A stretch of 64,000 nt of DNA from Felixounavirus LF110P4: sequence record OZ035790.1, one strand, 5' to 3'. A model generated the notes under the pieces. It searched no databases, was not told the DNA's origin, and was given only the letters and a program-made list of their open reading frames with translations. Below are positions 3,958 to 57,956 of the stretch, piece after piece. Made by a program: the position numbers and the translations under genes. How positions within the stretch are numbered: the stretch's first letter is position 1; each line of letters begins with the position of its first letter.

Positions 3958-5304
3958 ATGAGTTCGAATATCTTCAGACTTGCTGATAGATTATTCAACC
4001 AACCTTTACTAGCCACTGAATCATTAGCTCACTCAGCAGCAACTTATGTGAATAACAGATTGCTGGGTGATGTCCAAGCAGCAGTAAACTTTGATAAACC
4101 CAAAGGTGAAGCAAGAAGTCTTTTAAAAGTAAAAGATGACATTGCTATTATTCCTATTATGGGTGGTTTAACCCATCGTATGACATTCATTGATGCAATG
4201 TGTACTGGTGGATTAAGCTCTTATGAAGGTTTGCGTAGAGGCTTTGACGAAGCTTTAGCAGATGAGTCAATCAAGACTATTGTTCTGCATATTGATTCCG
4301 GTGGTGGTGAAGCTTCAGGTTGCTTTGAATTAGCACGTCACATTATGGCTTCAAGAGGCCAAAAGAAAATTATTGCTTATGTAGATGAGTTCGCTTGTTC
4401 CGCTGCATACGCTCTTGCATCTTCTGCTGAAGAAATTATTGCATCACCAGATGCAGATGTTGGTTCTATTGGTGTAATTATGGTTCATCAGGAATTAACT
4501 AAGGCATTTGAAAAGAATGGCGTAACAATTAACGTCATCAAAGCTGGTGAGTTTAAAGGTATGGGTTCACCATTCCAAGCACTCTCAGAAGAAAGCAAAG
4601 AAAGACTTCAAAAGAGAATTAATGATACCTACGCAACCTTTACAGGTTTTGTAGCCGAATCTCGTAATCTCTCTGAAGAAGCTGTAAAGAATACTGAGGC
4701 GAATGTTTATTCTGCTCAGGAAGCTCTTGAACTTGGTTTAATTAACTCAATCATGTCTCAAGATGATTTCTTAAATTACTTACAAGGTTCTGAAGAGGCT
4801 CCTGTAAGTTTAAACGTTAACAATTCAGGTGAAGAAATGACTGAACAAGAAAAGCAAGAACTAGAAGCTTTGCGTCTTCAGGTTGCTCAAATGAAAGCTA
4901 AAGAACAGGAAGCTGCTTTGTCAGATTTGACTAATAAGATTTCTGCTTCTGCTGAAGCTTTTGGATTTGATGCAAAAGAAGCTGCAACGACTATTTTAGG
5001 TGCTGGTCTTGATAACCCTCTGAGTGTTCTATTTATGAATGCTATGGAAGGTGCTAACCAGAAACTTAATGAAACTATCGCGTCCCATGCTTCTGCAATG
5101 GAAGAAAAAGAATCAGAAATTACCAAGCTGAAAGAAACTGCTGGTGCTGTTCTTGAACATTCCAACGCTATGGAAGAAGTGGGTAATGACGGCGAAGCTG
5201 ATTTGGTTGAAGAAGAAAAAGAACCAGCTAAGAATGCTTCCGAAGACACCGCTGAACAACGCAAACTGGCTCTCCAGAATGCTCTAAAATCTCTTATCAA
5301 ATAA
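3958..5304 (+). CDS. prohead protease / scaffold fusion (S49 ClpP-like peptidase with C-terminal coiled-coil acidic scaffold domain)
   Basis: N-terminal half resembles S49/SppA-type serine peptidases (HIDSGGGEASG, VDEFACSAAYALAS); C-terminal ~170 aa is E/K/A-rich and coiled-coil-like; sits between portal and capsid. Confidence 0.7.
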   Translation: MSSNIFRLADRLFNQPLLATESLAHSAATYVNNRLLGDVQAAVNFDKPKGEARSLLKVKDDIAIIPIMGGLTHRMTFIDAMCTGGLSSYEGLRRGFDEALADESIKTIVLHIDSGGGEASGCFELARHIMASRGQKKIIAYVDEFACSAAYALASSAEEIIASPDADVGSIGVIMVHQELTKAFEKNGVTINVIKAGEFKGMGSPFQALSEESKERLQKRINDTYATFTGFVAESRNLSEEAVKNTEANVYSAQEALELGLINSIMSQDDFLNYLQGSEEAPVSLNVNNSGEEMTEQEKQELEALRLQVAQMKAKEQEAALSDLTNKISASAEAFGFDAKEAATTILGAGLDNPLSVLFMNAMEGANQKLNETIASHASAMEEKESEITKLKETAGAVLEHSNAMEEVGNDGEADLVEEEKEPAKNASEDTAEQRKLALQNALKSLIK

Positions 5305-5315
5305 GGAACACAATA

Positions 5316-5693
5316 ATGGCATATCAAGGTTTTACTAAGTTAGGTAACAGAGAACCTCTGAATGATATCATTCTTTGGGAACAGATTACCCCAACAGGCC
5401 ACTCTCGTAAAGAGTACACTCCAGTTGCTTCAACAGAATACCGTGTAGGTGAAGTTCTGAAAGCAGATGGTACTAAGGTACAAGCTGGAGAAGAAGCCCA
5501 AGCAGACTCTGTATGTATCGTTAATTTCTACGCAGACCTGCAACTGTCTTATCATGGTCAGTTGAAAGTGGTAGGTATCCACCGTGATGCAGAACTAAAA
5601 GACCTGCTGACTCTTGAATCAAGCGTTAATGCTGATGAAGTCAAGAAAGCTTTGGCTGCTAAAGGTATCGATTTCGTACCAACTGGCCTGTAA
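5316..5693 (+). CDS. putative head decoration protein
   Basis: 125 aa ORF between protease and major capsid gene (lambda C-D-E-like order); optimal-codon-rich. Confidence 0.4.
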   Translation: MAYQGFTKLGNREPLNDIILWEQITPTGHSRKEYTPVASTEYRVGEVLKADGTKVQAGEEAQADSVCIVNFYADLQLSYHGQLKVVGIHRDAELKDLLTLESSVNADEVKKALAAKGIDFVPTGL

Positions 5694-5726
5694 TAACAAT
5701 AATAAGACCTTCTGGAGAATTTTACA

Positions 5727-6833
5727 ATGTTGACTAATTCTGAAAAAAGCAGATTTTTCCTTGCTGACCTGACTGGTGAAGTCCAGTCTATCCCAAATAC
5801 TTATGGGTATATTTCCAACTTAGGTCTGTTCCGTTCAGCACCAATCACCCAAACGACTTTCCTTATGGACTTGACTGATTGGGATGTTAGCTTGCTTGAT
5901 GCGGTAGACCGTGATAGCCGTAAAGCAGAGACTAGCGCACCTGAGCGTGTTCGTCAAATTAGCTTCCCAATGATGTATTTCAAAGAAGTTGAAAGCATCA
6001 CTCCTGATGAGATTCAGGGTGTACGTCAGCCAGGCACTGCAAACGAACTGACTACTGAAGCTGTAGTACGTGCTAAGAAGCTGATGAAGATTCGTACCAA
6101 GTTCGATATTACTCGTGAGTTCCTGTTTATGCAAGCTCTGAAGGGTAAAGTTGTCGATGCTCGTGGTACTCTGTACGCTGACCTGTACAAGCAGTTCGAC
6201 GTTGAGAAGAAGACTGTTTACTTCGACCTTGACAATCCTAATGCTGACATCGATGCTTCTATCGAAGAACTGCGTATGCACATGGAAGACGAAGCTAAGA
6301 CTGGCACTGTAATCAACGGTGAAGAAATTCACGTAGTTGTTGACCGTGTATTCTTCAGCAAACTGGTTAAGCATCCTAAGATTCGTGACGCTTATCTTGC
6401 ACAGCAGACTCCACTGGCTTGGCAACAGATTACTGGTTCTCTGAGAACTGGTGGTACTGACGGCGTTCAGGCTCATATGAACACCTTCTACTACGGTGGT
6501 GTTAAGTTTGTCCAGTACAACGGTAAGTTCAAAGACAAGCGTGGTAAGGTTCACACTCTGGTGAGCATTGATAGTGTAGCAGCAACTGTTGGTGTTGGTC
6601 ATGCCTTCCCTAACGTATCTATGCTGGGTGAAGCTAACAACATCTTCGAAGTGGCATATGGCCCATGTCCTAAGATGGGTTATGCAAATACACTTGGTCA
6701 GGAACTGTACGTATTCGAATACGAAAAAGACCGTGACGAAGGTATTGACTTCGAAGCTCACTCTTACATGCTGCCATACTGCACTCGTCCTCAGTTGCTG
6801 GTAGATGTTCGCGCTGACGCTAAAGGTGGCTAA
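5727..6833 (+). CDS. major capsid protein
   Basis: 368 aa ORF after protease and decoration genes; strongly biased codon usage (CTG, CGT, GGT, AAC) suggests high expression; synteny. Confidence 0.7.
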   Translation: MLTNSEKSRFFLADLTGEVQSIPNTYGYISNLGLFRSAPITQTTFLMDLTDWDVSLLDAVDRDSRKAETSAPERVRQISFPMMYFKEVESITPDEIQGVRQPGTANELTTEAVVRAKKLMKIRTKFDITREFLFMQALKGKVVDARGTLYADLYKQFDVEKKTVYFDLDNPNADIDASIEELRMHMEDEAKTGTVINGEEIHVVVDRVFFSKLVKHPKIRDAYLAQQTPLAWQQITGSLRTGGTDGVQAHMNTFYYGGVKFVQYNGKFKDKRGKVHTLVSIDSVAATVGVGHAFPNVSMLGEANNIFEVAYGPCPKMGYANTLGQELYVFEYEKDRDEGIDFEAHSYMLPYCTRPQLLVDVRADAKGG

Positions 6834-11286: not shown

Positions 11287-19305
<8,019 letters not shown>

Positions 19306-23200: not shown

Positions 23201-23566
23201 ATGAAGTGGCTAGAGGAAGCTTTTAAAAATAATATTGGTGCAATTGTAGTTGGTATTTTTAGTGTTATTGGGATGTATACCACCATGCAAGTTTCGGATG
23301 GTAAGCAAGAAGTGTCTGTCACAACAAAGTTACAGCAGCTAGATAATTACAGCAAAGCTAATTACTCAGCTATTCGTGATTTACAGTCTGACATGAGACT
23401 GATTCAGCTAGGGATGGAGAACCAGAAAGTTCAGTTAGAGAATGTTAAGGGTGAAAACGCAAAACTTACCAAAACTCTTGATAAATTCTCTGACAGTGTA
23501 AATAATCTGGCTCAATCAGTATCAGCCCTCCAAGCTATTACTGAGAAGAACACAAAAGAACACTGA
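23201..23566 (+). CDS. membrane-anchored coiled-coil protein (possible lysis-related or fibre assembly)
   Basis: 121 aa; aagggggag RBS; one TM helix (IGAIVVGIFSVIGMY) then coiled-coil-like region. Confidence 0.45.
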   Translation: MKWLEEAFKNNIGAIVVGIFSVIGMYTTMQVSDGKQEVSVTTKLQQLDNYSKANYSAIRDLQSDMRLIQLGMENQKVQLENVKGENAKLTKTLDKFSDSVNNLAQSVSALQAITEKNTKEH

Positions 23567-23574
23567 AAATAAAA

Positions 23575-23612
23575 TTTTAAGGCTCCTTTTTACGGGAGCC
23601 TTTTTTGTTTTT
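23575..23612. terminator. bidirectional intrinsic terminator between convergent gene blocks
   Basis: ggctcc-tttttacg-ggagcc hairpin flanked by an A-tract upstream and T-tract downstream. Confidence 0.7.
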
Positions 23613-24510
23613 ACTTACCTACTGACAAAGGTGCTTCAATCTTTCCTGCATGTTTGTAGTTGTTGATGCCACCAATAAAGTCACTTGCAGTAAGATGTTT
23701 AAGGTCACTTAGAGTGTTAAGCTGTACACCAATCTCAAAAGTAGGTGCATGGAACTCTTCATTGTTCATCAGTTCATAAACCTGCTTCATATGGTTCTGA
23801 TAAATTTGAGTATCTCCAAAGACACCTATCAAGTATCGTGGAGTGTATCCAGTCATCTTACAAAGAACTTCTAAGATAAAGCCATAAGACGCAATATTAA
23901 ACGGAAGTCCTAAAAAGGTGTCTACAGAACGCTGATACCATTGTAAGTCAACTTCACCTTCGTTAGTGATATAAATCTGAAACAGTACATGACAAGGTGC
24001 TAAAGCCATCGAGTTAGCTGCAATATCTGCTGCATTCCAAGCATTAACAAGCATGTAGCGGTCTGTAATATCACCCTTCATCTTCGTTACTAAGGTCTCT
24101 AACTGGTCTACAACACAACCATTATGACCTTCAAAGTTTCTCCACTGAACCCCGTAGATTCTCCCACCTGCATCTTCTAACCAGTCTTGTTCAGAAGAAT
24201 AGTTAGAGCTTAACCAGCGTTTAAAATCATCTGACCAGATAGTCCAGCGTTCCCCATCATTTTCACCCCAAGTACGGTAACGGAGTTCGCCAAGTTTATT
24301 CTCACCATTCAGGAACCATAAAGCTTCCCCGATAACTTGCCGTGTAAACACCTGTTTAGATGTTAAGAGTGGGAAACCAGTACGCATATCAAAACGAAAT
24401 TGTGGTGGAGCAAATGCAGAGATAACATCTCCAGTTCGTGTAGTACGCAGTTCACCAACGGATAAAACATGGTTCAGGATATTTTTGTAACTCAAATCAG
24501 CTTGTGACAT
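23611..24510 (-). CDS. thyA: thymidylate synthase
   Basis: ThyA signature including active-site ALAPCH and LQWYQRSVDTFLGLPFNIASYG motifs; 299 aa, colinear. Confidence 0.95.
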   Translation of the reverse strand: MSQADLSYKNILNHVLSVGELRTTRTGDVISAFAPPQFRFDMRTGFPLLTSKQVFTRQVIGEALWFLNGENKLGELRYRTWGENDGERWTIWSDDFKRWLSSNYSSEQDWLEDAGGRIYGVQWRNFEGHNGCVVDQLETLVTKMKGDITDRYMLVNAWNAADIAANSMALAPCHVLFQIYITNEGEVDLQWYQRSVDTFLGLPFNIASYGFILEVLCKMTGYTPRYLIGVFGDTQIYQNHMKQVYELMNNEEFHAPTFEIGVQLNTLSDLKHLTASDFIGGINNYKHAGKIEAPLSVGK

Positions 24511-31394: not shown

Positions 31395-31445
31395 AAGCCC
31401 TCCTATACAAGATACAGTATAAGGTACTCTTCCCTGAGCACCTTG

Positions 31446-31961
31446 TCAACTTAGTTTTGCAAACTCTCCGTGGAGTTTCACAGCAGCTTCACAGTAAGCT
31501 TTATGGGCTTCTTCTTCCGTTGTGTATGTCCCTATATGTATAGTCTTGCCATTATGGTTAATCTGGGCTATCCACTTACCAGACTTGCTTCTACTTGTGC
31601 CTTTTAAGTTTTTTGATGTTCTAGGTTGTCTCCTGTTAGACATGTTCTGTTCTTTTGTGGCCTCTCTTAGATTGTCCCAAGCATTATTCAAACCATCTCC
31701 ATCTTTGTGGTCAATATGTTTATCAGGCCACTTACCTGTCATCCAGAACCAAGCAATTCGGTGATTACCTGTCCTGTACCCTAAAATCTGTGTGTGCATA
31801 TACACACCAGACCTTGTGCGCTTAATTGCTCCAGCTTGGCTTCCAATAACCACCCTACTACTATGTGGAGGTCTGCCAATCCATGTTAAGACCCCTGTTT
31901 CGGGGTCATAATCTAACCAAGACTTTAACTGTTCATGTGTGAATCCACAATCTCTCATCAA
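31446..31961 (-). CDS. HNH homing endonuclease with AP2 DNA-binding domain
   Basis: HNH_3-like IDHKDGDGLNNAWDNLR plus AP2-like GTSRSKSGKWIAQINHNGKTIHIGTYTTEEEA; overlaps DNA polymerase gene by 4 nt. Confidence 0.8.
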   Translation of the reverse strand: MMRDCGFTHEQLKSWLDYDPETGVLTWIGRPPHSSRVVIGSQAGAIKRTRSGVYMHTQILGYRTGNHRIAWFWMTGKWPDKHIDHKDGDGLNNAWDNLREATKEQNMSNRRQPRTSKNLKGTSRSKSGKWIAQINHNGKTIHIGTYTTEEEAHKAYCEAAVKLHGEFAKLS

Positions 31962-34657
31962 TGCACCTCATACCAGCTCTTACCAACCTTACCTGTGCCA
32001 GTTACAAGTGTCTCACTCTTCAAACCTAAATTCTTAGATGCCTGACCATACATCCAGTCAGTTATGGCTTTAACTTCTTGAGTCATACTTTCTGGGCATT
32101 CCCAACTGTTTTCATCGTGGTATGCCAGCAAAAGCCTAGCACCAATTGCTGGTTTTCGTCCATTTAATTTTGTCAGTCCTTCTTCACATGCTCTTCTACA
32201 AGCAAGGTTAATTGCCTCATTTTGAATCTGAGCCTCCGAACCCATAAGCAAATAATTCAATAACTTATGTGGAGATTTGCACCACAACCAAGCTCCAGCA
32301 ACTTTTACAAAGCCCCCTTTAGAGATTGCAGCAGTCTTACCAAACACCTCTTCAAGTGCCTTTTTAGTTGCTTTGTAGTCAGCTTCCAAATCATCCAGCA
32401 ACTTCTTAATTTTAGGCAAACGGATAAAGTAAGTCTGCTTAGTCAGTGCACCTTCCTGAGTAGTTGCAGCTTTAATCGTCTTAGCAAACTTCTCATCACC
32501 TGCACCGAACAGCAGTGCATAGATACCGTTCTTAGCTTTCTTACGACCTTTGCTAATCTCATGAAGAAGGTTCTCATCCTGAGTAGCTCGACAAGTCAAG
32601 ATGTCCTGCTCATCGTTCAAGCTAAAGTAAATACTGTTCAGTGTATGTGCATCAGTCCCTGAATAGACAACGTACAGGTCATTCTCAGAGTCATAGCGAA
32701 GGTACTTATCAATCTCTGGGTTGAGGTACTCATCAAAGTGTTTGCAGTAATAGCGTCTATCTTCTTGACGAATAAACTCAATCTCTTCTTTACCTTGCGT
32801 TACCGCTTTGGTGAAGTCTTTGTCACCCATAAAGTTACAAAGGAGGACTAGCTGGGCTGAGTTCATGTCTACAGAGACAACGTTAGTACCTTCTTCACAA
32901 ATCCACACTGCCCTCATTGGTTCCCCATAGACAGCAGCACCAGACGGTACGTTTACAATACCGTACTGTGTCATACGTCCAGTTGAAGTACCAAACACCA
33001 TTGCACCAGCACTAAGGCGACCATCTGGACGAATCTGGTTCAACCAACCTTTTTCATCATCCTTTGAGTTCTCAATAGTTCTGCGTCGGTGCATCAAAGT
33101 GTAGTATTTAGCAATCTTCTGTCCAAGCTCACCTTCAATCGTATCGTAAGATGATTCAGTAAGTTTTGGTGAAGTACGGATTAAGCAAGGCTCAAGCAAA
33201 TCTGTGTACTTCTTCACAGACCAGTTATGCTCAATGTACTGGACGCCTTCGTGTTCAACATAACTCAAACCACACCGCTCAACCATTTCCTGCCACTTAG
33301 GATGCTTTGTAATCATCTTTTTATTGTCTTTGAAACGACAAACTTTGACAGGGCGACCATCAGAGTCTTTCTTGTAGTTCCAGTCATCTGGAATCCAACC
33401 AACTGATTTCAAGTAGTCTTTAACAACTGCTACCTGAGTCATACGAGAAACTTCAAACTCAATTGGTGTATATGGTGCATCAATCAAACCTGTGTAGCGA
33501 CTTGACTCAAGTTCAAAGTGGTTAACAACGTGGCTGTTATAGTACTTCACAGTTTTGACTGTTTTTACTGGCTTCCAGTCTTTGCATTTCTTACCAATCT
33601 TTGCGTTCAACTCATTGCAAATTGCACGAGCATCCTTCATTGCTACAAAGCCTTCCTTGTACTCTTCACCAGTTACAGTGTTGGTTGGTGTATAGCAATT
33701 CCTTTTTTCAATGTTAAAAATCTTTGTAGTTGGCTTACCAAATGGTTTGATTTCGTATGTCTGCATCTCGCCATTACGTACCTGCTGACGATACTTTGTC
33801 TTAGGGTACTTGGTAATTCTTTTCAGTCCATCTGCATGACCAAATGTTTCAACATACTCATTCCAAGCTTTTGCAAACTCTTCTCCAGTGACTTTACCTT
33901 TGGTCTTAATAGTTGGAGGTAGATGCGGTTCAACTTCTGAAGCAAGTTCATTAGTCAACTTGTCAAGTTCCTTTACATGGAACTCCATAAGCTCTTTATC
34001 AGCTTTCCAACCATTGATAGCCTGTTGACTCATCCAGAAAGATGTTTCTTTAGCTCGCATGTAAGTTTCATAAGTGTCTATACCACACTTCTTAAGCTTG
34101 AGATACTCGTTATCAAGTGCCCGTTTAGTTTTGGCGTTAATACGGATATCTTCTACAACACGAGTGAAGATTTCTGCATTCCACACACCCCAATGCTCAA
34201 TCTCTGGCTTACGAACACCAACACGAGCACCCCATGCAGCCAAACCATGAGCACCTTTATAACCCTTTGGAGTTGGTCTATCCATCCACTGAACACGAGA
34301 CTGGATAAGAGAATCCTGAAAGTAATTACTCCACGGTTTACACTTTGGGTTATCAAAGTTCCATAAATCAGGTGCAATGTGATTAAAAACCCACCAGTCA
34401 TAACCGAGACCGTTATGGATGCAAAGACGTTTTGCCTTTAACGCAAATTCAACACCTTCACGTAAACCACCCTTAATGTACTTGGTATACTTGTGACCGA
34501 GGATAGGTTCATCTGTAAAGACCCATACAGGTGGCTCTTCATCGTCAGATTTATAGTCTGCGAAAGCCATTACGTGCACTTTAGTGAACTCAAGGAGTAA
34601 ACCATCAGTTTCTGTATCACCAACTAAATGTAAGTTTTTAAAATCTACGTTTTCCAT
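31958..34657 (-). CDS. DNA polymerase, family A, with 3'-5' exonuclease domain
   Basis: ExoI DTETDG; motif A DMNSAQL; motif B KNGIYALLFGAG; motif C YHDE; ATG at 34657 with agagggag RBS (track ORF extends to 34687). Confidence 0.9.
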   Translation of the reverse strand: MENVDFKNLHLVGDTETDGLLLEFTKVHVMAFADYKSDDEEPPVWVFTDEPILGHKYTKYIKGGLREGVEFALKAKRLCIHNGLGYDWWVFNHIAPDLWNFDNPKCKPWSNYFQDSLIQSRVQWMDRPTPKGYKGAHGLAAWGARVGVRKPEIEHWGVWNAEIFTRVVEDIRINAKTKRALDNEYLKLKKCGIDTYETYMRAKETSFWMSQQAINGWKADKELMEFHVKELDKLTNELASEVEPHLPPTIKTKGKVTGEEFAKAWNEYVETFGHADGLKRITKYPKTKYRQQVRNGEMQTYEIKPFGKPTTKIFNIEKRNCYTPTNTVTGEEYKEGFVAMKDARAICNELNAKIGKKCKDWKPVKTVKTVKYYNSHVVNHFELESSRYTGLIDAPYTPIEFEVSRMTQVAVVKDYLKSVGWIPDDWNYKKDSDGRPVKVCRFKDNKKMITKHPKWQEMVERCGLSYVEHEGVQYIEHNWSVKKYTDLLEPCLIRTSPKLTESSYDTIEGELGQKIAKYYTLMHRRRTIENSKDDEKGWLNQIRPDGRLSAGAMVFGTSTGRMTQYGIVNVPSGAAVYGEPMRAVWICEEGTNVVSVDMNSAQLVLLCNFMGDKDFTKAVTQGKEEIEFIRQEDRRYYCKHFDEYLNPEIDKYLRYDSENDLYVVYSGTDAHTLNSIYFSLNDEQDILTCRATQDENLLHEISKGRKKAKNGIYALLFGAGDEKFAKTIKAATTQEGALTKQTYFIRLPKIKKLLDDLEADYKATKKALEEVFGKTAAISKGGFVKVAGAWLWCKSPHKLLNYLLMGSEAQIQNEAINLACRRACEEGLTKLNGRKPAIGARLLLAYHDENSWECPESMTQEVKAITDWMYGQASKNLGLKSETLVTGTGKVGKSWYEVH

Positions 34658-34687
34658 TTTTACTCCCTCTAAAATCATTAACCTCAT

Positions 34688-34914
34688 ACATTACTGCAAA
34701 AAATTATAAAAAGCAAGTTGACAATGCACTTGACAAGGTGTTAATCTTTGCGAAGTGGGTTTTTACTTAAAAGGTTACTTAACAGTTTAACTATACAGAT
34801 ACTTTAAAACTCTTAAAAGATTATTTAATAGCTTTTAAAAAGCTTTAAAGTATAACGTATAGAATACGTTAAGATAAAAGATTAAAACTTAATAGTTACT
34901 TAAAAGAGGCTTAC
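34688..34914. promoter_or_regulatory. divergent control region between leftward and rightward gene blocks
   Basis: TTGACA boxes at 34718 and 34730 (+), minus-strand TATAAT at 34703-34708, repeated cttaaaag motifs, palindrome aacgtat-aga-atacgtt at ~34853-34869. Confidence 0.5.
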
Positions 34915-40537: not shown

Positions 40538-41584
40538 ATGGAGAAGTACACATTAAAAAAACTTCCCGATTCAGTTACACATGTCTTTATTGACTCTGAC
40601 AGTATTGCCTATAAAGGTGCTTGTGTAGTTGAGAAAGCAAAATATAAATATGTCAATAAACTCACAGCAGAAGAATCTGAATCATTTGATAATGCAAAAG
40701 ATGCTGCAAGATGGTTAGCAGACCAGAGAATCCTTGTAGAAGAGCTTGGCCTAGCATTTGATGAAGATGAATGGGAAAGACAGACTTGGAAAGAAGCTAA
40801 GAGTGAAAAAGAAGCTATCATGGCTACTCAGCAGGTTCTTCAGGAATGGCTTAAGGTTGTTGGTAAAGAAAGAACTTGGGTAGGTTATTTAACAGAGAAA
40901 GGTGTGCATAAACATAAAGACATTAAAGGTCTTGAGCACCAATATCAAGGGAACCGTAAAGATGCTGTCACACCAACACACTTAGTTGCTTGTCGTGAAT
41001 ACCTTCTGTCAAGACCAGAGTTCAAATTGATTCTTGATGGATTTGAAGCTGACTCTATCGTTATTGCTAAAGCTGAAAAGATGGGTAAAAAGGCTGCCTT
41101 AATGAGTATTGATAAAGACCTTCGCCAAGCTGAAGGGACTTACTGCATTGATATGACCTATGAAAAGTCGCCTTTGATTTTCATTGCTGATAACAACGTA
41201 GGTGAAATTTGGGATTGCCCAATAAAATCGACACCAAAAGCTAAGAAGACAGTTGGGGTAGGTTTTAAATTTCTTTGCTATCAAGCCGTGGCTGGTGATA
41301 ATGCGGATAATTATTTTGGCTTAAAGGGTGTTGGCAAGGTTACTATAATGAAAGCCCTTGAAGGCAAAACCACCTACAAAGAGTGTCTTGATGCAATTTA
41401 TGAGCTTTATGCTAAGAAAGAGTCATACACTTATATCTCGTGGGATGGTCAAACAATTACCAGAACACCTTTAGAGTTAATGCAGCAACACTTTTTCTTA
41501 GCTTATCAGGAAAGAAACAAGAAAGATGATTTCACTTTTGATAAGTATGGATGGACACCAAATGTTAACCCAACAAACTCTTAA
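40538..41584 (+). CDS. 5'-3' exonuclease / flap endonuclease (RNase H-like)
   Basis: N-terminal acidic PIN-like FIDSDSIAY; H3TH-like GLKGVGKVTIMKAL. Confidence 0.6.
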   Translation: MEKYTLKKLPDSVTHVFIDSDSIAYKGACVVEKAKYKYVNKLTAEESESFDNAKDAARWLADQRILVEELGLAFDEDEWERQTWKEAKSEKEAIMATQQVLQEWLKVVGKERTWVGYLTEKGVHKHKDIKGLEHQYQGNRKDAVTPTHLVACREYLLSRPEFKLILDGFEADSIVIAKAEKMGKKAALMSIDKDLRQAEGTYCIDMTYEKSPLIFIADNNVGEIWDCPIKSTPKAKKTVGVGFKFLCYQAVAGDNADNYFGLKGVGKVTIMKALEGKTTYKECLDAIYELYAKKESYTYISWDGQTITRTPLELMQQHFFLAYQERNKKDDFTFDKYGWTPNVNPTNS

Positions 41585-42053
41585 AGAATACCTACACTAT
41601 GACCCCGAAACAGGGGTCTTTACTTGGATTAAGAAGTCTGCTAGACACACAAAAATTGGCTCTGTTGCAGGTACAAACTTAAGAGGGTACACCAGAATTT
41701 ATTTGTTTGGTAAGGGTTATTATGCACATACTCTAGCTGTTCTGTATATGGATGGATACCTACCTGAGTGTGTTGACCATAAAAATCATGTAACACTAGA
41801 CAATCGATGGGTAAATCTTAGGGCATGTACATTATCAGAGAACCAATGCAATAGGTTGCTCAATAAGAACAATAAATCAGGTGTTAAAGGTGTGTACTAC
41901 AAAAAACAGTATGGTAAGTGGTCTACACAGATAACTTTTAAGAAGAAAGTTTACTTCTTCGGAAACTATGACACTATTGATGAAGCAGCAGAGGTTGTAA
42001 ATAGGGAACGCCAACGTTTACACAAAGAGTTTGCTAATAAAGGTGATGAATGA
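41547..42053 (+). CDS. HNH homing endonuclease with AP2 domain
   Basis: YDPETGVFTW, HNH_3-like VDHKNHVTLDNRWVNLR, AP2-like GVKGVYYKKQYGKWSTQITF; paralog of the 31446 and 55269 genes. Confidence 0.75.
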   Translation: MDGHQMLTQQTLKEYLHYDPETGVFTWIKKSARHTKIGSVAGTNLRGYTRIYLFGKGYYAHTLAVLYMDGYLPECVDHKNHVTLDNRWVNLRACTLSENQCNRLLNKNNKSGVKGVYYKKQYGKWSTQITFKKKVYFFGNYDTIDEAAEVVNRERQRLHKEFANKGDE

Positions 42054-42550
42054 GAAAAATAAAAGGTTTTGGCAATTGCCCTGAATATGGACATTGGGTT
42101 TCACTATGTGGTGAAGTTGACCCAGCAAAGCACTTTGGTTTTGTCTACCTAGTATACTGCAAAAAGACCGGACAGTACTATTTGGGTAAGAAACAGCTTA
42201 ACAGTGTGACCAAAAGAAAAGTTGCTGGGAAGACTCGGAAGAAGGTAGTCACTAAGGAGAGTGATTGGATGACTTATGAGACTTCTTCTGAGTATATTAA
42301 AAAAGATATTGAGAGCTTTGGAAAAGAATTTTTTGACTTTTACATTATCCAAACCTACTACACAAAAGGTGGCCTAGTCTATGGTGAAGCAAACCTTCAA
42401 CATAAATTCGATGTAATGACAAAAAGGATTGACTCTAAGCTCAGACTCTTCTACAATGCCAACATTGCAGCAATTAAGTTTATCACTAAAGAAACTTATG
42501 AAGATGCTGAAAAAAGAATCCATAAGGTAATGAAAGCGAATTGTGCTTGA
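42050..42550 (+). CDS. hypothetical protein, possible GIY-YIG-like nuclease
   Basis: FGFVYLVYCKKTGQYYLGKK loosely resembles a GIY-YIG motif. Confidence 0.3.
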   Translation: MRKIKGFGNCPEYGHWVSLCGEVDPAKHFGFVYLVYCKKTGQYYLGKKQLNSVTKRKVAGKTRKKVVTKESDWMTYETSSEYIKKDIESFGKEFFDFYIIQTYYTKGGLVYGEANLQHKFDVMTKRIDSKLRLFYNANIAAIKFITKETYEDAEKRIHKVMKANCA

Positions 42551-48335: not shown

Positions 48336-50480
48336 ATGAACAAAGTACAGATTATTAAAAAGAATGGCTCACTTGAAGAACCTGATATCAAAAAAGTTTT
48401 AGCAGCAGTAACTAAGTCAGCTAACAGGGTTGGATATAAAGAACTCCCACCAGATGTTACCCAAGCTCTTGAGTCAGCATTTATGAGGATTCTGGTAAAG
48501 TCCACTAAACAGAATAATTTGCTAATTTCGGTAAATGATATTCACAGTATTGTTGAGGGTGCTTTGGCAGAAGTCAATCACGAAATCTATGAGTCTTACT
48601 CAACATATAGAAATTACCGTAAAGAAGTTGCTCAAAATTGGGATGAACTCTACCAGAAGACCAGAGATACACTCTTCTTAGGTGACAGAGAGAATGCTAA
48701 CTTTGACAGCAGTTTAATTTCTACAAAAGGTTCAATTATTCGTGGTTACCTGACTAAAGAAATCTTTAAGCAGTACCATTTAACACCAGAGGAACTTGAA
48801 GCCATTGAAAAAGGGTTTATCTATATCCACGATTTAAGAGACCTGATTTTTGGCGGCATTAACTGTTGCTTGTTTGACATTGGTAAAGTACTGAAAGGTG
48901 GCTTTGAGATGTCTGGCATCGAATACTGTGAACCGAAGTCTGTGCTGTCAGCCTTACAGGTTATTGGTGATGTAGTTCTTTCAGCAACTGCACAGCAATT
49001 TGGTGGATTTACTTTAGCAGAGATTGATAAGGTGCTTGTACCGTATGCTAAAAAGTCTCTACGCTACCATGCTGAGAAAGCAGCATCTTACGGTATTCCT
49101 AAAGAACATTACCACAATTATGTCATGGAGCAGCTACAGCTTGAATTAACTCAGGGTTTCCAGTCACTCGAAATGAAACTAAATACTGTACCTTGTAGCC
49201 GTGGTGATTTTGCATTTACAACTTTGACATTTGGATTACTTGACTCAGATATGTCTAATGAAGACAACCGACTGCAATACATGATTGCAAACACCATTCT
49301 TGATGTTCGCATGAATGGACAAGGTAAGAGTAAGAAGCCTGTTGTATTCCCTAAACTGGTTTATATTCATGACCAGAAGAGACACGATGAGAATATCTGT
49401 CAAGGCCAACTGTACAGTAAAGCTATAGAGTGTTGCTCTAAAGCGATGTATCCAGATTTCTTAAGTGTATCTGGTCATGGTGCTGTAGCAGAAGCTTTTG
49501 AGCGTTCTGGCAAGGTAATCTCGCCGATGGGTTGTAGAGCCTTCTTATCTCCATATCTTAACGAGGATGGGGAAGAGTTCTACGTTGGTCGTGCTAACAT
49601 TGGTGCTGTATCTTTGAACTTACCAATGATTTACCAGTATTCTAAAGAGAATGGTTTAGATTTCTGGAAAGAGCTTGATAAGTACCTAGAGATGATTCGC
49701 AACTTCCACAAGAAACGCTACGAAATGATTGCTAATATGCCAGCAAGTTCTAACCCTCTTGCGTTCACACAAGGTGGTCTGTACAAAGGAACTAAGAAAC
49801 CTACTGACAAGGTTGGTTGGGATATTGTGAAGTCCTTCACAGCTTCTTTTGGTGTTACTGCGCTTGATGAGTTGTCTGTTCTTGCTGAAGGTAAACGACT
49901 TCATGAAGTTGGAAGCTATAGTTTTGCATATGATGTTCTGGCATACATTAACATGAAAACCGAAGAGTTTAAAAATGAAGATGGCTTCTTATATGCCGTC
50001 TATGGTACTCCAGCAGAATCACTATGTGGGACTCAGCTAAAACAGTTCAGAGATATGTTTGGGGTTATCAAAGGTGTTTCCGATAAGGAATACTTTACAA
50101 ACAGTTTCCATATGAATGTTGTAGCAGACATCTCACCATTTGAGAAGCAGGACTTAGAAGAGCCATTCTTCCATATCTGTAGAGGCGGTAGAATCCAGTA
50201 TGTAAGAGTAGCTAACCCAGAAAACTTATCAGCACTTAAGAGCTGTATTACAAGAGGAATGTTGAAAGGTTTCTATCAGGGACTTAACTTTGACTTAGCA
50301 ATCTGTGAACATTGTGGTAACAGGCCAAAGGCTGATGTTGAAGAATGTGAAGTTTGTCACTCACATGATATCTCTGTGATTAACAGGGTGTGCGGGTACT
50401 TGTCATTCACAAAAATTAAAGGTCAGTCTCGAATGAATGACGCTAAGATGGCAGAAATTAAGGATAGGGTTTCTATGTAG
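48336..50480 (+). CDS. nrdD: anaerobic ribonucleoside-triphosphate reductase
   Basis: N-terminal ATP-cone; zinc ribbon CEHCGN...CEVC; glycyl-radical motif RVCGYLS near C-terminus; 714 aa colinear. Confidence 0.9.
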   Translation: MNKVQIIKKNGSLEEPDIKKVLAAVTKSANRVGYKELPPDVTQALESAFMRILVKSTKQNNLLISVNDIHSIVEGALAEVNHEIYESYSTYRNYRKEVAQNWDELYQKTRDTLFLGDRENANFDSSLISTKGSIIRGYLTKEIFKQYHLTPEELEAIEKGFIYIHDLRDLIFGGINCCLFDIGKVLKGGFEMSGIEYCEPKSVLSALQVIGDVVLSATAQQFGGFTLAEIDKVLVPYAKKSLRYHAEKAASYGIPKEHYHNYVMEQLQLELTQGFQSLEMKLNTVPCSRGDFAFTTLTFGLLDSDMSNEDNRLQYMIANTILDVRMNGQGKSKKPVVFPKLVYIHDQKRHDENICQGQLYSKAIECCSKAMYPDFLSVSGHGAVAEAFERSGKVISPMGCRAFLSPYLNEDGEEFYVGRANIGAVSLNLPMIYQYSKENGLDFWKELDKYLEMIRNFHKKRYEMIANMPASSNPLAFTQGGLYKGTKKPTDKVGWDIVKSFTASFGVTALDELSVLAEGKRLHEVGSYSFAYDVLAYINMKTEEFKNEDGFLYAVYGTPAESLCGTQLKQFRDMFGVIKGVSDKEYFTNSFHMNVVADISPFEKQDLEEPFFHICRGGRIQYVRVANPENLSALKSCITRGMLKGFYQGLNFDLAICEHCGNRPKADVEECEVCHSHDISVINRVCGYLSFTKIKGQSRMNDAKMAEIKDRVSM

Positions 50481-50487
50481 AATACAA

Positions 50488-51066
50488 ATGAATTACGAAC
50501 TAATATATAATGCAATTATTAAAAAGGCACATTCTGAAAGGGGTGTGCCTCTCACATACTACAAATGTCAAGGTAAGGGTTATGAAAGACACCATATCAT
50601 ACCAGTATGTCTAGGTGGCGATAAAATTAGTGGAGATAACATTGCTTTACTTACACCTAGAGAGCATTATATAGCTCATAAATTACTGGTTAAGATGTAT
50701 CCAAACAATCATAAGTTATGGTTTGCATGGAGCAGGTTAGCTCATGATGGCCTAGATAGGAAAATATCATCCAGAGACTATGAAAAGGTAAGGGCTTTAA
50801 ACTCGAAAGCTCTATCGATTGTGAATAAAGGTAGGGTTTTCACTGAAGAGCATCGAAGACGATTAGGAGAAGCTCAAATAGGTAATACAAAGTCAAAAGG
50901 TTGTAAAAGGTCTATGGAAACAAGGAAGAAGATGTCAGAAGCCGGAAAAAAGCCAAAGAAAAAGAAAACTTGCCCGCATTGTGGCATGACTGGTGGTGCT
51001 GGTAACATGACTCGATATCATTTTGACAATTGTAAGAAAAAAAAAATAACCTTATGTAAAACTTGA
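50488..51066 (+). CDS. HNH homing endonuclease with NUMOD-like repeats
   Basis: HNH motif RHHIIPVCLGGDKISGDNIALLTPREH; NUMOD3-like FTEEHRRRLGEAQIG and SMETRKKMSEAGKK; between nrdD and nrdG. Confidence 0.75.
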   Translation: MNYELIYNAIIKKAHSERGVPLTYYKCQGKGYERHHIIPVCLGGDKISGDNIALLTPREHYIAHKLLVKMYPNNHKLWFAWSRLAHDGLDRKISSRDYEKVRALNSKALSIVNKGRVFTEEHRRRLGEAQIGNTKSKGCKRSMETRKKMSEAGKKPKKKKTCPHCGMTGGAGNMTRYHFDNCKKKKITLCKT

Positions 51067-51121
51067 CAAGGTGGTGTGGGTCTTGATAGGCTTACATCAC
51101 CTTTTTATTTGGAGTTACATT

Positions 51122-51457
51122 ATGGACTTGTGGCTTTATGTAGCAGTTTGTGGGATTGTATGTCTGATAATCTTATTTATTCTTGGAATAATGCGATTTA
51201 GAGACATCATACAGTCAGATTTTTTGCCTGAGTTTGCCATGATGGTTGGAGTTATTGCACTTTGTGTCTTGGCGGTGTTCTATTCATACAAAACTGTGAT
51301 ATGGATGAAGTCAAACAATTGTGTAAAAACTCATCAACATCGTGAGGTTACTTATTTTGTGAGTGTACTTAGTGGGAACACCACTGTACTTGTCCCACAA
51401 ACTTCTGTAGAGTATCTTTACACATGTGATAATGGTAAAACTATATGGTGGAATTAA
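51122..51457 (+). CDS. small membrane protein
   Basis: two predicted TM helices; track ORF 51071 (GTG) trimmed to ATG 51122. Confidence 0.35.
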   Translation: MDLWLYVAVCGIVCLIILFILGIMRFRDIIQSDFLPEFAMMVGVIALCVLAVFYSYKTVIWMKSNNCVKTHQHREVTYFVSVLSGNTTVLVPQTSVEYLYTCDNGKTIWWN

Positions 51458-51459
51458 CA

Positions 51460-51660
51460 ATGGCAACACTCTTAAAGGTATTGACACCCACACTACACAT
51501 AGTAATCTTCTTCTTTGGGGTTAGTGTTATGGTATGGGGTTTTTCAGACCCACAATGGAGTTTCTCATATCATGGTCAGATGGATTTATGGTCATGCTTC
51601 AAACCATTTTTAGGGTTAGTCATAGCATTCAGTGCATTACCAACTAAGGTGAAATTATGA
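51460..51660 (+). CDS. small membrane protein
   Basis: hydrophobic segment HIVIFFFGVSVMVWGF. Confidence 0.35.
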   Translation: MATLLKVLTPTLHIVIFFFGVSVMVWGFSDPQWSFSYHGQMDLWSCFKPFLGLVIAFSALPTKVKL

Positions 51661-52052
51661 TTAAGTTGAGCCAAAAACAGTTAGAGTGGATTAAAGATTA
51701 TGCCTCAGAGTGTGGCTCTTGTGAAAAGAATCACGTAAGATACTCAACATTCCACACGGTCTTCACATTGTATATCGGCGACAATGTTCTAAGTGATTCT
51801 GTAGAAGATGGTGTAGCATTGCCTAATGAATTGCTTGACAAATTAGCTGTAGTCACTGGAACTTGGTCTGAAGAAGATGGTCACGAACTATCTGATGATG
51901 TTGTCTTCTACAGTCTTGAAAACATCATGAATCCAGAGTACATTATGCTAATGACTTGCGCACAAGATTGTGTACCATTACAAAACTTCATTAAAGAGCA
52001 CTGTGAAGAATTTATTACTAAACAGGTTCCTTGTCAGGTGGTGTTTGAATGA
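51657..52052 (+). CDS. hypothetical acidic protein
   Basis: 131 aa ORF. Confidence 0.35.
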   Translation: MIKLSQKQLEWIKDYASECGSCEKNHVRYSTFHTVFTLYIGDNVLSDSVEDGVALPNELLDKLAVVTGTWSEEDGHELSDDVVFYSLENIMNPEYIMLMTCAQDCVPLQNFIKEHCEEFITKQVPCQVVFE

Positions 52053-52348
52053 GTAAAACAATTCGAAGAAAAGGTTTAAAGAACGTTCATGGACTCTATG
52101 AGTGGAGAAATGAGGTACGTAACAGAGAAAATGCTTCAGATGTCTACTTCCATTCTGATATGATGTCCAGAAAAGGTGGCTCTTACGACTTCACAAGCCA
52201 GCCTTGTAGAGAGATTAAGAAGGCCACTAAACGTCTTACAAGAACACAAATAAGGCAGCTTTCTAAGACATCCTTCTTAGATGAAGATTTTGATATTGAT
52301 AGCAAGTCTCCAAAGAAATCCGCTAAGAACACTTATATGTATTGGTGA
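52049..52348 (+). CDS. hypothetical basic protein
   Basis: 99 aa ORF. Confidence 0.35.
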   Translation: MSKTIRRKGLKNVHGLYEWRNEVRNRENASDVYFHSDMMSRKGGSYDFTSQPCREIKKATKRLTRTQIRQLSKTSFLDEDFDIDSKSPKKSAKNTYMYW

Positions 52349-53580: not shown

Positions 53581-54096
53581 ATGTATCTGTCAAACCTGAA
53601 ACGTTCGGTTGCAATGTCAGTTCTAAGACTCAGCTTTGATGAGCGTCAAGAGTTTATAGACTCCCACAAATATGACCCTTCAAATTCTAATCACATGGTT
53701 CTTTGGAATCGTGATAACTTCCGTGAAAGAGCACTTGTCCGTTATTACCCACACTACACAATAGATAACCTGTATGAATGGTGTGTTGTGAAGAACACCA
53801 TTGCAACACTGAACAATCTTTGCAGGTATACGGGTAAGCAAACATTTACATTAGGTCATCACAAACCTGTTACAAAAGGTGGTGAACATCACTGTGCAAA
53901 CTGGTTTATCCAAACTAAAGCTGATAACCAGAAGCAAGGAGATAGCCTCCTAAGTATCCCTAAGATGACCTATGAAGAGCAAGAGAAATATATCAAAAAT
54001 AATATGCCAGATGTGCTTGACAACAACTATACAGATTTGGCAATATCTCTCCTGTTGAAGTTCGAGACAGTTTATAGGGCAACTTATAATGGCTAA
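53581..54096 (+). CDS. hypothetical protein with HNH-like motif
   Basis: LGHHKPVTKGGEHHCANWFIQTKADNQKQG resembles an HNH nuclease core. Confidence 0.4.
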   Translation: MYLSNLKRSVAMSVLRLSFDERQEFIDSHKYDPSNSNHMVLWNRDNFRERALVRYYPHYTIDNLYEWCVVKNTIATLNNLCRYTGKQTFTLGHHKPVTKGGEHHCANWFIQTKADNQKQGDSLLSIPKMTYEEQEKYIKNNMPDVLDNNYTDLAISLLLKFETVYRATYNG

Positions 54097-55268: not shown

Positions 55269-55760
55269 ATGAATAAGGGTTATTTTGAAAAATACCTAAT
55301 ATATGAACCAGATACAGGTTTATTAATTTGGAAAGTAACCCTTTGCAGTACCGCTATTGCTGGTAATGTGGCTGGCACAAGGTCTAAGAAGGGTTATATC
55401 CAAGTCCAGATAAATAAGAAGAGGTACTATGCACATAATATTGCATGGATTATGTCTGGGGGTGAGATACCAAGTGGATATGAGATAGACCACATAGACC
55501 TTGATAAAGCTAATAATAAGTTGGAGAACTTAAGACTTAGCACAAAGTCACAAAATCAGAGGAATAGGGGTATACACAAGAATAATAAGACTGGTGTGAA
55601 GGGTGTAAGTTTTTGTAAACAAACAGGTCTTTACAAAGCAAGAGTCATGCTTTACCATAAAGAATACTTTTGTGGAAGATTTAAAACAGTAGAAGAAGCA
55701 AAAGAAGCTGTAATTAAAAAGCGAATAGAACTTCATGGTGAGTTTGCAAGACATAACTAA
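55269..55760 (+). CDS. HNH homing endonuclease with AP2 domain
   Basis: YEPDTGLLIW, HNH_3-like EIDHIDLDKANNKLENLR, AP2-like GVKGVSFCKQTGLYKARV; inserted between prs-like and NAMPT-like genes. Confidence 0.75.
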   Translation: MNKGYFEKYLIYEPDTGLLIWKVTLCSTAIAGNVAGTRSKKGYIQVQINKKRYYAHNIAWIMSGGEIPSGYEIDHIDLDKANNKLENLRLSTKSQNQRNRGIHKNNKTGVKGVSFCKQTGLYKARVMLYHKEYFCGRFKTVEEAKEAVIKKRIELHGEFARHN

Positions 55761-55776: not shown

Positions 55777-57558
55777 ATGAGTAAGTCACTTTACGCAGTA
55801 CCAGCAGGTCTTAATGCAGATGCTTACAAGGCATCACATATATATCAGTATCCAGATGCTACACAGTATCTTATGTTGAACCTGACACCACGTAGTGACA
55901 AATGGTTTAACAGCCCCTTAGCAATTGACGGTGTAGTGGCTTTTGGTATTCAACGTTTTGTTAAAGACTACCTGATAGACCACTGGAATGCCACCTTCTT
56001 TGAACGTGACAAAAAAGAAGCAATTGACGAAATCTTAGAAGTCATGAACGGTGTTCTGGGTAAAGATGCTATTGGTCGAGAACATTGGGAAGCACTTCAC
56101 GACTTAGGTTATCTACCAGTTGAAGTATACGCTGTAGAAGAAGGTACAGTTGTTCCTATGCGTGTACCAATGATTGTCTTCCAGAATACTGTTTCAGGTT
56201 TCCATTGGGTAGCGGGGTATCTGGAAGATGCTTTCTCTGCTGAGATTTGGAAGGCTTGTACCATTGCAACTATTGCATTGCACTACAAACGTATCTGTAA
56301 GAAGTGGTCTGACCTTACTTGTGACAACGACTTGCATTTGCCTTATCAGTGCCATGATTTTGCTATGCGTGGTATGTCCGGCTTTACCGATGACGCATTT
56401 AACGCTGTAGGCCACTTAACCAGCTTTAAAGGAACTGATAGCTTCCCTGCTGTGTATACGGCTAAACGAATCTATGGACAGTCTTACCCAATATCTGATA
56501 TTGGTAGCTCTGTACCAGCCACTGAGCACTCTGTAATGTGTGCAAACATTGCTTGGGAAGGTGGTAATGAGTTGATTGAAGAAGAAAGACGCTTTAAAGG
56601 TGAGTTACAAACCTTCCGTCGTTTCTTAACAGAAACTTACCCAACTGGTATTGCAAGTATTGTTTCAGATACTTATAACTTCTGGAGAACTGTGTCAGAA
56701 ATCTTACCAGCACTCCGTAAAGAAATTATGGAACGTGATGGTAAACTGGTAATTCGCCCTGACTCTGGAGACCCTGTACATATTGTCACAGGTTATAAAG
56801 CAATCCACTTAGAGTGTGCTAAAAAGGCTTATTACGAGCACCTAAGCAAGCTTGAAGCCAGCGACACAATGTTGAATGCTGTTCTGAACATGAAGCTTGA
56901 AAACATCAACTATGGTATTGCTGGATGGCTACTGTCAGAAGGCTACGAAATGGTTGTTGACAGAGAAGACTTTGAAGTTGCTGATACAGTGCTGTTGAAA
57001 AACGCTTATATGGTTGGTTCTGCAAACGTTGTAACACGTCCTGTAGCGGAGATTGATGGAGCTATCAAGACACTGTATAACATCTTTGGGGGAACTATTA
57101 ACTCTAAAGGGTTTAAGGTACTGGATGAGCACATCGGCCTTATCTATGGTGACTCTATCACGCTGGAACGTGCAAACGAAATCCTGAAGCGTCTGTATGA
57201 AATGGGTTTTGCAAGCTCTAACGTAGTATTTGGTGTAGGCTCTTACACTTACCAGTACATGACTCGTGACACCTTTGCATTTGCTGTCAAAGCAACTCTT
57301 GCAAGCATTGGTGGTAAAGAGATTATGCTTGCAAAAGACCCTAAAACAGATAGTGGTGTTAAGAAATCTGCCTTTGGTGGTGTAGCACCTATGTGGGATG
57401 GTGAAAATCTGAAAGCTGTAGATGGCTATGGGTTCCAGAGCTTTGCAGATGCACTTGAACACCCAGCTTGTGCTTTACGTCTAGTCTTTAGTGACTCTGA
57501 GCAGTTCGGCTACACAACTCTTGGTGATATTCGAAATAATATTGACAAGCAGCTTTAA
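55777..57558 (+). CDS. nadV: nicotinamide phosphoribosyltransferase-like protein (NadV/NAMPT family; candidate NARP1 Namat)
   Basis: 593 aa; overall resemblance to NAMPT and genomic pairing with PRPP-synthetase-like gene. Confidence 0.7.
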   Translation: MSKSLYAVPAGLNADAYKASHIYQYPDATQYLMLNLTPRSDKWFNSPLAIDGVVAFGIQRFVKDYLIDHWNATFFERDKKEAIDEILEVMNGVLGKDAIGREHWEALHDLGYLPVEVYAVEEGTVVPMRVPMIVFQNTVSGFHWVAGYLEDAFSAEIWKACTIATIALHYKRICKKWSDLTCDNDLHLPYQCHDFAMRGMSGFTDDAFNAVGHLTSFKGTDSFPAVYTAKRIYGQSYPISDIGSSVPATEHSVMCANIAWEGGNELIEEERRFKGELQTFRRFLTETYPTGIASIVSDTYNFWRTVSEILPALRKEIMERDGKLVIRPDSGDPVHIVTGYKAIHLECAKKAYYEHLSKLEASDTMLNAVLNMKLENINYGIAGWLLSEGYEMVVDREDFEVADTVLLKNAYMVGSANVVTRPVAEIDGAIKTLYNIFGGTINSKGFKVLDEHIGLIYGDSITLERANEILKRLYEMGFASSNVVFGVGSYTYQYMTRDTFAFAVKATLASIGGKEIMLAKDPKTDSGVKKSAFGGVAPMWDGENLKAVDGYGFQSFADALEHPACALRLVFSDSEQFGYTTLGDIRNNIDKQL

Positions 57559-57597: not shown

Positions 57598-57611
57598 TTC
57601 TGGAGAATGCT

Positions 57612-57956
57612 ATGGACAACCTTTCCATATGGTTTAACAAGAAACCTGTGCAACCGAAATACTTACAAGTTGCCTATACAGACATCCTTGAAGTTCTCGG
57701 TAAAGAAAAGTTTGAAAAGTTTTGTGAAGGTATCTACAATCACCACTGCCAATTTGCTACAAAAGAAGGTATGTTTGTCATAGAACAGTTCTTTGGCAGA
57801 GACCCAGATGACTACGAAGAGATTAGCTTTGTAATGAAATACATGATAGAGTATATTGAAAATCGTGGATTCGAAGTTAATCCTGAATTTTATGAACATG
57901 AGGGTGTGCCTTTAGCAAAAGGTTTTGATGGCATACTCGTTAACTGGACTTGGTGA
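57612..57956 (+). CDS. hypothetical protein
   Basis: 114 aa with ggag RBS. Confidence 0.4.
   Translation: MDNLSIWFNKKPVQPKYLQVAYTDILEVLGKEKFEKFCEGIYNHHCQFATKEGMFVIEQFFGRDPDDYEEISFVMKYMIEYIENRGFEVNPEFYEHEGVPLAKGFDGILVNWTW

Follow-up and report, generated by a model that had tools for sequence, protein, structure and literature searches.

A predicted HNH-AP2 homing endonuclease gene abutting the DNA polymerase gene of a Felixounavirus, one of three paralogs

The DNA polymerase gene of Felixounavirus LF110P4 is followed directly by a gene (HEG #1) which very probably is a free-standing homing endonuclease gene of the HNH_3+AP2 type, borne by neither an intron nor an intein and homing in the manner proposed below. 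The sequence analysed, hereafter the window, is the whole stretch of 64,000 nucleotides from record OZ035790.1. An earlier note, made from the sequence alone, had described an HNH-AP2 homing endonuclease ORF abutting the polymerase gene, and this is upheld by Pfam domains, by a TGATG overlap of the two genes and by a signature of mobility. The finding is correct but already known, because Felix O1 carries such genes at the same sites, they figure in its genome paper and in the AP2-HNH literature, and an identical protein is annotated in phage Andreotti.

Genomic Context and Relatives

The window is a Felixounavirus genome sharing 94–95% nucleotide identity with its best Escherichia and Salmonella phage matches (Andreotti and SeKF_63). 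A 7-kb stretch around HEG #1 matched 263 phage records, nearly all of them Felix O1-like myoviruses (Ounavirinae); the matched Ounavirinae are phages of Escherichia, Salmonella, Shigella and Citrobacter, and a 25-kb query had the same outcome. The comparison set consisted of syntenic loci of ~30 kb from SeKF_63, Si3, Alf5, HY02, ST11, SUSP1, Michonne and Felix O1 (n = 8), to which the pol 3' junctions of Moogle and Sf15 were added, giving loci from 10 relatives in total. Michonne, Moogle and Sf15 are Moogleviruses, and SUSP1 is of another genus than the window, with a background nucleotide identity of ~79%. Genes were called present or absent by tblastn and pairwise alignment of the syntenic loci.

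In annotated relatives the order of genes is ligase, small ORFs, HNH, DNA polymerase, dNMP kinase, primase/helicase, exonuclease, HNH and “NAD synthetase,” followed by nrdA/B, nrdD, nrdG, prs, HNH, nadV and rIIA. This confirms the placing of the nuclease genes beside polA, the exonuclease gene, nrdD and prs/nadV that had been proposed from the window itself.

Domains, Paralogy and Catalytic Residues

HEG #1 (31446–31958, minus strand) specifies a protein of 170 amino acids and lies directly downstream of pol. HEG #2 (41547–42053, plus strand; candidate starts 41526, 41547 or 41562) overlaps its neighbors on both sides, namely the exonuclease gene at its 3' end and an ORF of the GIY-YIG type at its start, while HEG #3 (55269–55760, plus strand) is situated between prs and nadV. 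That the three are paralogs, as claimed in the earlier note, was borne out by multiple alignment: the proteins are 36–38% identical over their full length, with 41 invariant columns that include Y18, P20, T22, G23, W27, D84, H85, N97, N106 and N109. The N-terminal Y.P.TG...W motif and the C-terminal LH.EFA are invariant in all three, as are the catalytic HNH residues D84, H85, N97 and N106, so that the common architecture of N-terminal motif, HNH_3 core and AP2-like C-terminus stands, with the AP2 match below threshold in HEG #2 and #3. Pairwise tblastn comparisons among the three gave E-values of 1e-22 to 1e-30, and no further or degenerate HNH-AP2 copy was found in the window by tblastn. The family as a whole is widespread; a tblastn search (E ≤ 1e-10) of 50,697 phage records located it 2,611 times, in 1,844 records from many host genera.

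Pfam HNH_3 (PF13392; cut-off 24.8 bits) is matched by HEG #1 [1.3e-14, 53.9 bits], HEG #2 [1.3e-11, 44.4 bits] and HEG #3 [5.5e-19, 68.0 bits], and PHROG 99 (“HNH endonuclease”) by all three, at about 5e-64 (HEG #1) to 1e-70. Pfam AP2 (PF00847) is above the gathering score in HEG #1 [9.7e-9, 35.8 bits against a cut-off of 33.3] and below it in HEG #2 [3e-4, 21.4 bits] and HEG #3 [5e-4, 20.7 bits], both of which align with HEG #1 throughout. A profile built from the three paralogs matched I-HmuI [1u3e, 4.6e-5] and also the plant AP2 protein WRI1 [7e-8]. In the pairing with I-HmuI, whose residue numbers were counted from the printed alignment, D84-H85 correspond to D74/H75, the Asn of the NLR motif (N97) to N87, and N106 to N96.

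An AlphaFold model made from the three-sequence alignment had a mean pLDDT of 63. Its AP2 region was modelled at pLDDT 78–91 and superposes on the AP2 domains of TEM1 and ERF96 at 1.6–2.2 Å with a probability of 1.0; HNH residues 85–116 reached pLDDT 38–47. A PDB fold search with this model recovered the AP2 part alone and no HNH structure, because the HNH core is poorly modelled from three paralogs. The HNH fold therefore rests on sequence profiles, and it is these that settle the predicted family of the trio. HEG #1 is in addition predicted to possess an AP2/ERF DNA-binding domain, by a profile match above threshold and by the modelled fold, a three-stranded sheet with a helix.

The Junction with the Polymerase Gene

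The family A DNA polymerase gene of the window (31958–34687, minus strand, 909 amino acids) is uninterrupted. HEG #1 is co-oriented with it in another frame and exactly occupies the interval from the stop codon of pol to the transcription unit that comes next. The ORF was correctly recognized in the earlier note; its start at 31961 was not, the TTG at that position being merely the first mechanical start. The gene probably begins with the ATG at 31958, which overlaps the TGA stop of pol by one nucleotide (TGATG) and is preceded at a distance of 7 nt by a GAGG Shine-Dalgarno sequence lying within the last pol codons. Annotated relatives use the equivalent start.

These last pol codons and the stop (31958–31975, minus strand), which carry both the GAGG and the TGATG, are recoded relative to HEG-less genomes. 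The window reads TAT GAG GTG CAT TGA and Michonne TAC GAG GTA CAT TGA, as against TTA GAA GTT CAC TAA at the empty site of Moogle. Between Michonne and Moogle all five terminal codons, the stop included, are changed, whereas the preceding kilobase is nearly identical; recoding of the Michonne type creates both the ribosome-binding site and the start codon of the homing endonuclease gene. The empty junction of Moogle and Sf15 reads ...TGGTTAGAAGTTCACTAATAGTGTTGACAAGG....

The other end of HEG #1 lies in a conserved TTGACAAGGTG box (31439–31449, minus strand), the TGA of which is the stop codon of the gene and which is also found at empty sites; the insertion at the pol site spans exactly the interval from the pol stop codon to this box. 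Exact copies of TTGACAAGGTG occur in the window at 31439–31449 (−), 34730–34740 (+) and 51063–51073 (+), all intergenic; if one mismatch is tolerated, the matches number 8, where 2.0 would be expected. The TGA of two unrelated nuclease genes, HEG #1 and an HNH-NUMOD3 gene, is supplied by exact copies, and these are kept at the matching empty sites. The box was not called as a sigma-70 promoter by a consensus scan, and its −10 candidates are poor. Location of HEG #1 within an intron or intein was rejected: no Rfam family reached its gathering score in the window, and the ORF comes after the stop codon of pol and is read in another frame.

Presence and Absence of Four Nuclease Genes

In amino acid sequence HEG #1 is 100% identical to a protein of phage Andreotti (QHR70864.1) annotated as “homing endonuclease,” and it is 98–100% identical across phages from Denmark and Canada with E. 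coli or Salmonella Infantis as hosts, among which the pol 3' end beside it differs by 20–28%. Downstream of pol, all the Felixounavirus and Suspvirus relatives sampled have an HNH-AP2 sequence of one lineage or another, that of ST11 being truncated, so that within the genus no naive target came to light. The pol site is empty in Moogle and Sf15 and occupied in their congener Michonne by an allele 88% identical to that of the window, the insertion consisting of the ORF only.

HEG #2 is absent from Alf5, SUSP1 and Michonne, and shows 97.6–99% amino acid identity to its counterpart in HY02. HEG #3 is present in Si3, ST11, SUSP1 and Felix O1 (ORF128) and absent from SeKF_63, Alf5, HY02 and Michonne. 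The fourth gene, of the HNH-NUMOD3 type, lies downstream of nrdD (50488–51066, plus strand) and matches PHROG 655 (“homing endonuclease”) [8.6e-58] and NUMOD3 [2e-6, above gathering]; it corresponds to a 579-bp indel, the exact length of the ORF, that is missing from SeKF_63, Alf5, HY02 and Felix O1. Among ~260 related genomes the window alleles were found at full length in 49 records for the pol site, 20 for the exonuclease (exo) site, 61 for the prs site and 51 for the nrdD site.

Insertion polymorphism, which the earlier note had suggested looking for, was thus found at all four sites, and the identification of the four window genes as patchily distributed selfish nuclease genes is supported by these sequence comparisons. 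Of the four to six such genes originally envisaged, four stand on ORF-sized polymorphism; six do not, the two remaining candidates being present in 8/8 relatives.

Decay is also seen in this group. The HNH-AP2 gene at the exo site has shrunk to an annotated CDS of 177 nt in Si3 and ST11, and ST11 is without ~1 kb across the HEG #1/pol junction, either through a real deletion or through an assembly artefact (decay coordinates 15680–15856 in the Si3 locus, L004, and 4447–4692 in the ST11 locus, L007).

Allele Diversity and Flanking Tracts

Between lineages the alleles at the pol site are only 39–54% identical, while their flanks exceed 90%; within lineages identity is 87–99% (window, SeKF_63, Si3 and Michonne) or 85% (HY02 and SUSP1). 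All nonetheless share the same final ~24 residues. At the nucleotide level the region 31440–31500, which covers the last ~60 nt of HEG #1 with the adjoining downstream sequence, is 92–97% identical in Alf5, HY02, SUSP1 and Felix O1, whereas outside this shared 3' end the alleles of these phages are ~50–65% identical. The shared end is either a common recombination arm or the result of some constraint. Three lineages (53–58% identity) occupy the exo site and a single one (90–98%) the prs site.

By Nei-Gojobori comparison with relatives, dN/dS was 0.03–0.06 for HEG #1 and 0.07–0.10 for HEG #3, and both proteins are therefore under purifying selection. The pol-site alleles of HY02 (L006 3850–4383) and SUSP1 (L008 3556–4083) have Ser at the metal-binding Asn position equivalent to N106 (...DFQSAWNK...), which could mean impaired catalysis or recourse to a different ligand.

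The earlier note had also proposed a search of the adjacent genes for substitutions linked to the nucleases. Such substitutions occur, in that the terminal pol codons are recoded and tracts in nadV and nrdD are largely, if imperfectly, linked to the neighboring homing endonuclease gene. Haplotypes of these flanks were surveyed over 252–260 records. The first 150 nt of nadV are 81–83% identical to HEG-less but 97% identical to HEG-bearing genomes, and the next 600 nt are 94–95% identical in both. The tract largely linked to HEG #3 (55777–55900, plus strand) is nearly bimodal database-wide, with 81 records at ≥95% and 153 at <90%. Similarly, the last 123 nt of nrdD, the tract associated with the HNH-NUMOD3 gene (50358–50480, plus strand), are 98% identical to Si3 but only 78–79% identical to HEG-less genomes, after 600 nt that are 93–96% identical in all; over 260 records this tract is strictly bimodal (92 at ≥95%, 0 at 90–95% and 168 at <90%). 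As to the imperfection of the linkage, ST11 has the linked nrdD haplotype yet is without the gene at that site, and REP5 and A132, which seem to be without HEG #3 (as judged only by where the alignments end), nevertheless have nadV tracts 95–96% identical to that of the window. Imperfect linkage fits the cycle of gain and loss expected of homing endonuclease genes.

At the pol site the 3' ~1 kb of the polymerase gene (31960–32940) forms a mosaic tract, in which identity to Si3, HY02 and Felix O1 falls to 67–88% from the 93–100% seen on either side; its breakpoints coincide with the HEG boundary. SeKF_63 possesses the same HEG #1 (97%) but a divergent pol tail (72–78%); Alf5 has an identical pol tail (98–100%) but a different HEG allele. 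The exonuclease 3' end of the window matches Felix O1-type genomes, and its exo-site nuclease gene matches that of HY02.

Proposed Mechanism and Alternatives

The steps of homing proposed here follow what is established for free-standing homing endonucleases of phages and for HNH enzymes of the I-HmuI type; for the HNH-AP2 proteins of the window we infer cleavage, homing, target site and the chemistry of nick versus break from sequence and by analogy. HEG #1 would be translated by coupling to pol, and its product would bind DNA through the C-terminal AP2 domain together with an N-terminal beta-hairpin region. A single beta-beta-alpha-metal site (D84/H85/N97/N106) would then nick or cut the pol-downstream junction of co-infecting relatives in which the gene is missing or represented by another allele. 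When the damage was repaired by recombination with the HEG-bearing genome, the gene would be copied along with the adjacent recoded pol codons, the outcome being super-Mendelian inheritance and local mosaicism. HEG #2 at the exo/GIY-YIG junction, HEG #3 between prs and nadV, and the HNH-NUMOD3 gene that follows nrdD, which is unrelated to them, would act likewise, each at its own site.

One might instead regard HEG #1 as a nuclease or DNA-binding protein that has been retained or domesticated for the benefit of the phage, whether in excluding competitor genomes or as an AP2-type regulator at the TTGACAAGGTG box. We think this unlikely. The strong purifying selection on the gene would suit it, as would the seeming translational coupling to pol and the presence of some HNH-AP2 sequence after pol in every sampled Felixounavirus and Suspvirus genome; Moogle and Sf15, however, are viable phages with an empty pol site, and the divergence of the alleles between well-conserved flanks speaks for turnover rather than conservation of a single function. 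The stop codon of HEG #1 does lie inside a conserved motif recurring at two other intergenic sites, but that motif is unchanged where the nuclease gene is missing and no promoter was called there; competitor exclusion, for its part, hardly differs from homing in practice. Still less probable, to our minds, is an inactive relic, once mobile and now decaying in place. The shortened exo-site genes of Si3 and ST11 and the truncated pol-site gene of ST11 show decay in the group, and the HY02/SUSP1 allele has Ser at the position of a metal-binding Asn. Against this, the three HNH-AP2 ORFs of the window are full length with all catalytic residues kept, dN/dS is 0.03–0.10, and HEG #1 is almost invariant across distant isolates that differ considerably in the adjoining pol 3' end. 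A role in packaging like that of the HNH protein gp74 of HK97 was also rejected, on the weak grounds of location in a replication and nucleotide-metabolism cluster and of patchy distribution.

Homing thus remains the preferred reading for HEG #1, and an extension of it may be offered tentatively. The divergent lineages, of which at least four occupy the site in different phages, the almost identical ~24 final codons that they share and the TTGACAAGGTG box downstream suggest rival alleles displacing each other. The site downstream of pol might accordingly be viewed as a cassette-exchange slot, in which HNH-AP2 lineages replace one another by way of the shared 3' end and the pol arms; we are inclined to doubt this rather than to accept it, though such exchange could be the cause of the extreme mosaicism found in the final ~1 kb of this essential polymerase gene.

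Two Conserved Nuclease-Like Genes

The two other ORFs that had been counted as possible selfish nucleases are, by the presence/absence test on these sequences, fixed core genes and not currently mobile. The GIY-YIG ORF (42050–42550, plus strand) is of the SegE type [Pfam SegE_GIY-YIG, 8.9e-27, 94.2 bits against a cut-off of 25] and occurs in 8/8 relatives from three genera with 87–99% amino acid identity, which equals the background. A domain search detected no second or DNA-binding domain in it, and this, together with its fixation across three genera of Ounavirinae, raises the possibility of a domesticated nuclease. PHROG 447 and most GenBank records label its homologs “NAD synthetase,” which looks like a misannotation passed on from record to record.

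The second ORF (53581–54096, plus strand) has an HNH-like motif (GHHKPVTKGG...N...N) and belongs to PHROG 3500 [function unknown, 4e-93]. It matches the HNH family PHROG 2214 weakly [2.3e-6], gave no match to Pfam HNH even at E ≤ 5, and has a dN/dS of 0.12–0.15. It too is present in 8/8 relatives, with an amino acid identity of 76–99% that tracks the genomic background.

Relation to Known Systems

Felix O1 ORF95, ORF106 and ORF128 occupy the same three sites as the trio (after pol, after the exonuclease gene and at prs/nadV) and have the same HNH_3+AP2 architecture; annotated orthologs of theirs are found in genomes of Felixounavirus, Suspvirus and Mooglevirus. HEG #3 is 91% identical to ORF128, whereas the pol-site and exo-site alleles of the window belong to other lineages than those of Felix O1 (39–41% and 57–58% amino acid identity). 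The genome paper of Felix O1 (PMC3185647) counts six homologs of HNH homing endonucleases and no introns, and PMC5318435 groups this phage with RB49, Trichodesmium and Tetrahymena as carriers of AP2-HNH homing endonucleases, citing Magnani 2004 and Wuitschick 2004. Felix O1 is among the founding examples of that class. A comparison of Felixounaviruses had earlier noted variation at three HNH regions (PMC9951933). HNH-AP2 homing endonucleases of Felix O1 have therefore been in the literature since 2004 and 2010, and no new biological question is opened here.

Barth et al. 2023 described nuclease genes of the HNH+AP2 type that lie close to essential genes of phages and at the boundaries of exchange, with interchangeable occupants per site (PMC10448857). 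The ICP1-like “IPA-HNH” and AP2-HNH enzymes resemble the window trio in having an N-terminal HNH and a C-terminal AP2 domain and in lying beside essential genes. They differ in that the IPA-HNH domains of ICP1 are too divergent for Pfam HNH_3, which the window trio matches strongly, and Felix O1-type phages are outside the lineages highlighted in that study (PMC10448857).

Like HEG #1, I-HmuI and the intron endonucleases of SPO1, SP82, Bastille and Twort have a core of the HNH_3 type with the D-H...N...N set of residues and a DNA polymerase gene as host locus. I-HmuI, however, resides inside a group I intron and binds DNA through NUMOD and helix-turn-helix elements, whereas HEG #1 is free-standing and has AP2. 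Enzymes of the I-HmuI type are monomeric and nick one strand. The free-standing Seg and Mob enzymes of T4 offer another parallel, namely intergenic insertion of an ORF alone beside conserved genes and intronless homing with co-conversion of the flanks, a pattern which the HNH-NUMOD3 gene after nrdD fits. The T4 enzymes have other DNA-binding modules and were experimentally tested, while those of the window are known from sequence.

For annotation, the analysis confirms four mobile nuclease genes and assigns two look-alikes, one of them widely mislabelled “NAD synthetase,” to the fixed core. Felix O1-like phages serve in phage therapy and in the typing of Salmonella; their phylogeny is distorted by local gene conversion at the 3' ends of pol, nrdD and exo and at the 5' end of nadV.

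Other Insertions in the Region

Between the HNH-NUMOD3 gene and nrdG lies a block of small ORFs (window 51106–52339) that Si3 and ST11 lack and that is variably present in the others; it is another hot spot of accessory genes adjoining a nuclease gene. Just 3' of nadV there is a 350-bp indel (window 57605–57954), present in the window and Alf5 and absent from SeKF_63, Si3, HY02, ST11 and Felix O1, which encodes a small ORF of 114 amino acids (57612–57956, plus strand).

In Si3-type relatives an 801-bp insertion splits pol within the conserved KNGIYA|LLFGAGDE motif (equivalent to window position 32514) and carries an ORF with an Endonuclease_7 domain [9e-20]. A 742-bp insertion holding an HNH_3 ORF splits nrdD in the same relatives and in Alf5 (equivalent to window position 49532). 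In locus L004 the insertion coordinates are 5513–6276 and 23342–24163. Both gave matches to Rfam group I introns on the coding strand that are below the gathering score of 50 [26.2 bits, 2e-4, and 33.1 bits, 2e-6]. The pol and nrdD alleles of the window are uninterrupted, and in GenBank the split halves are annotated as two “DNA polymerase” or “nrdD” CDSs.
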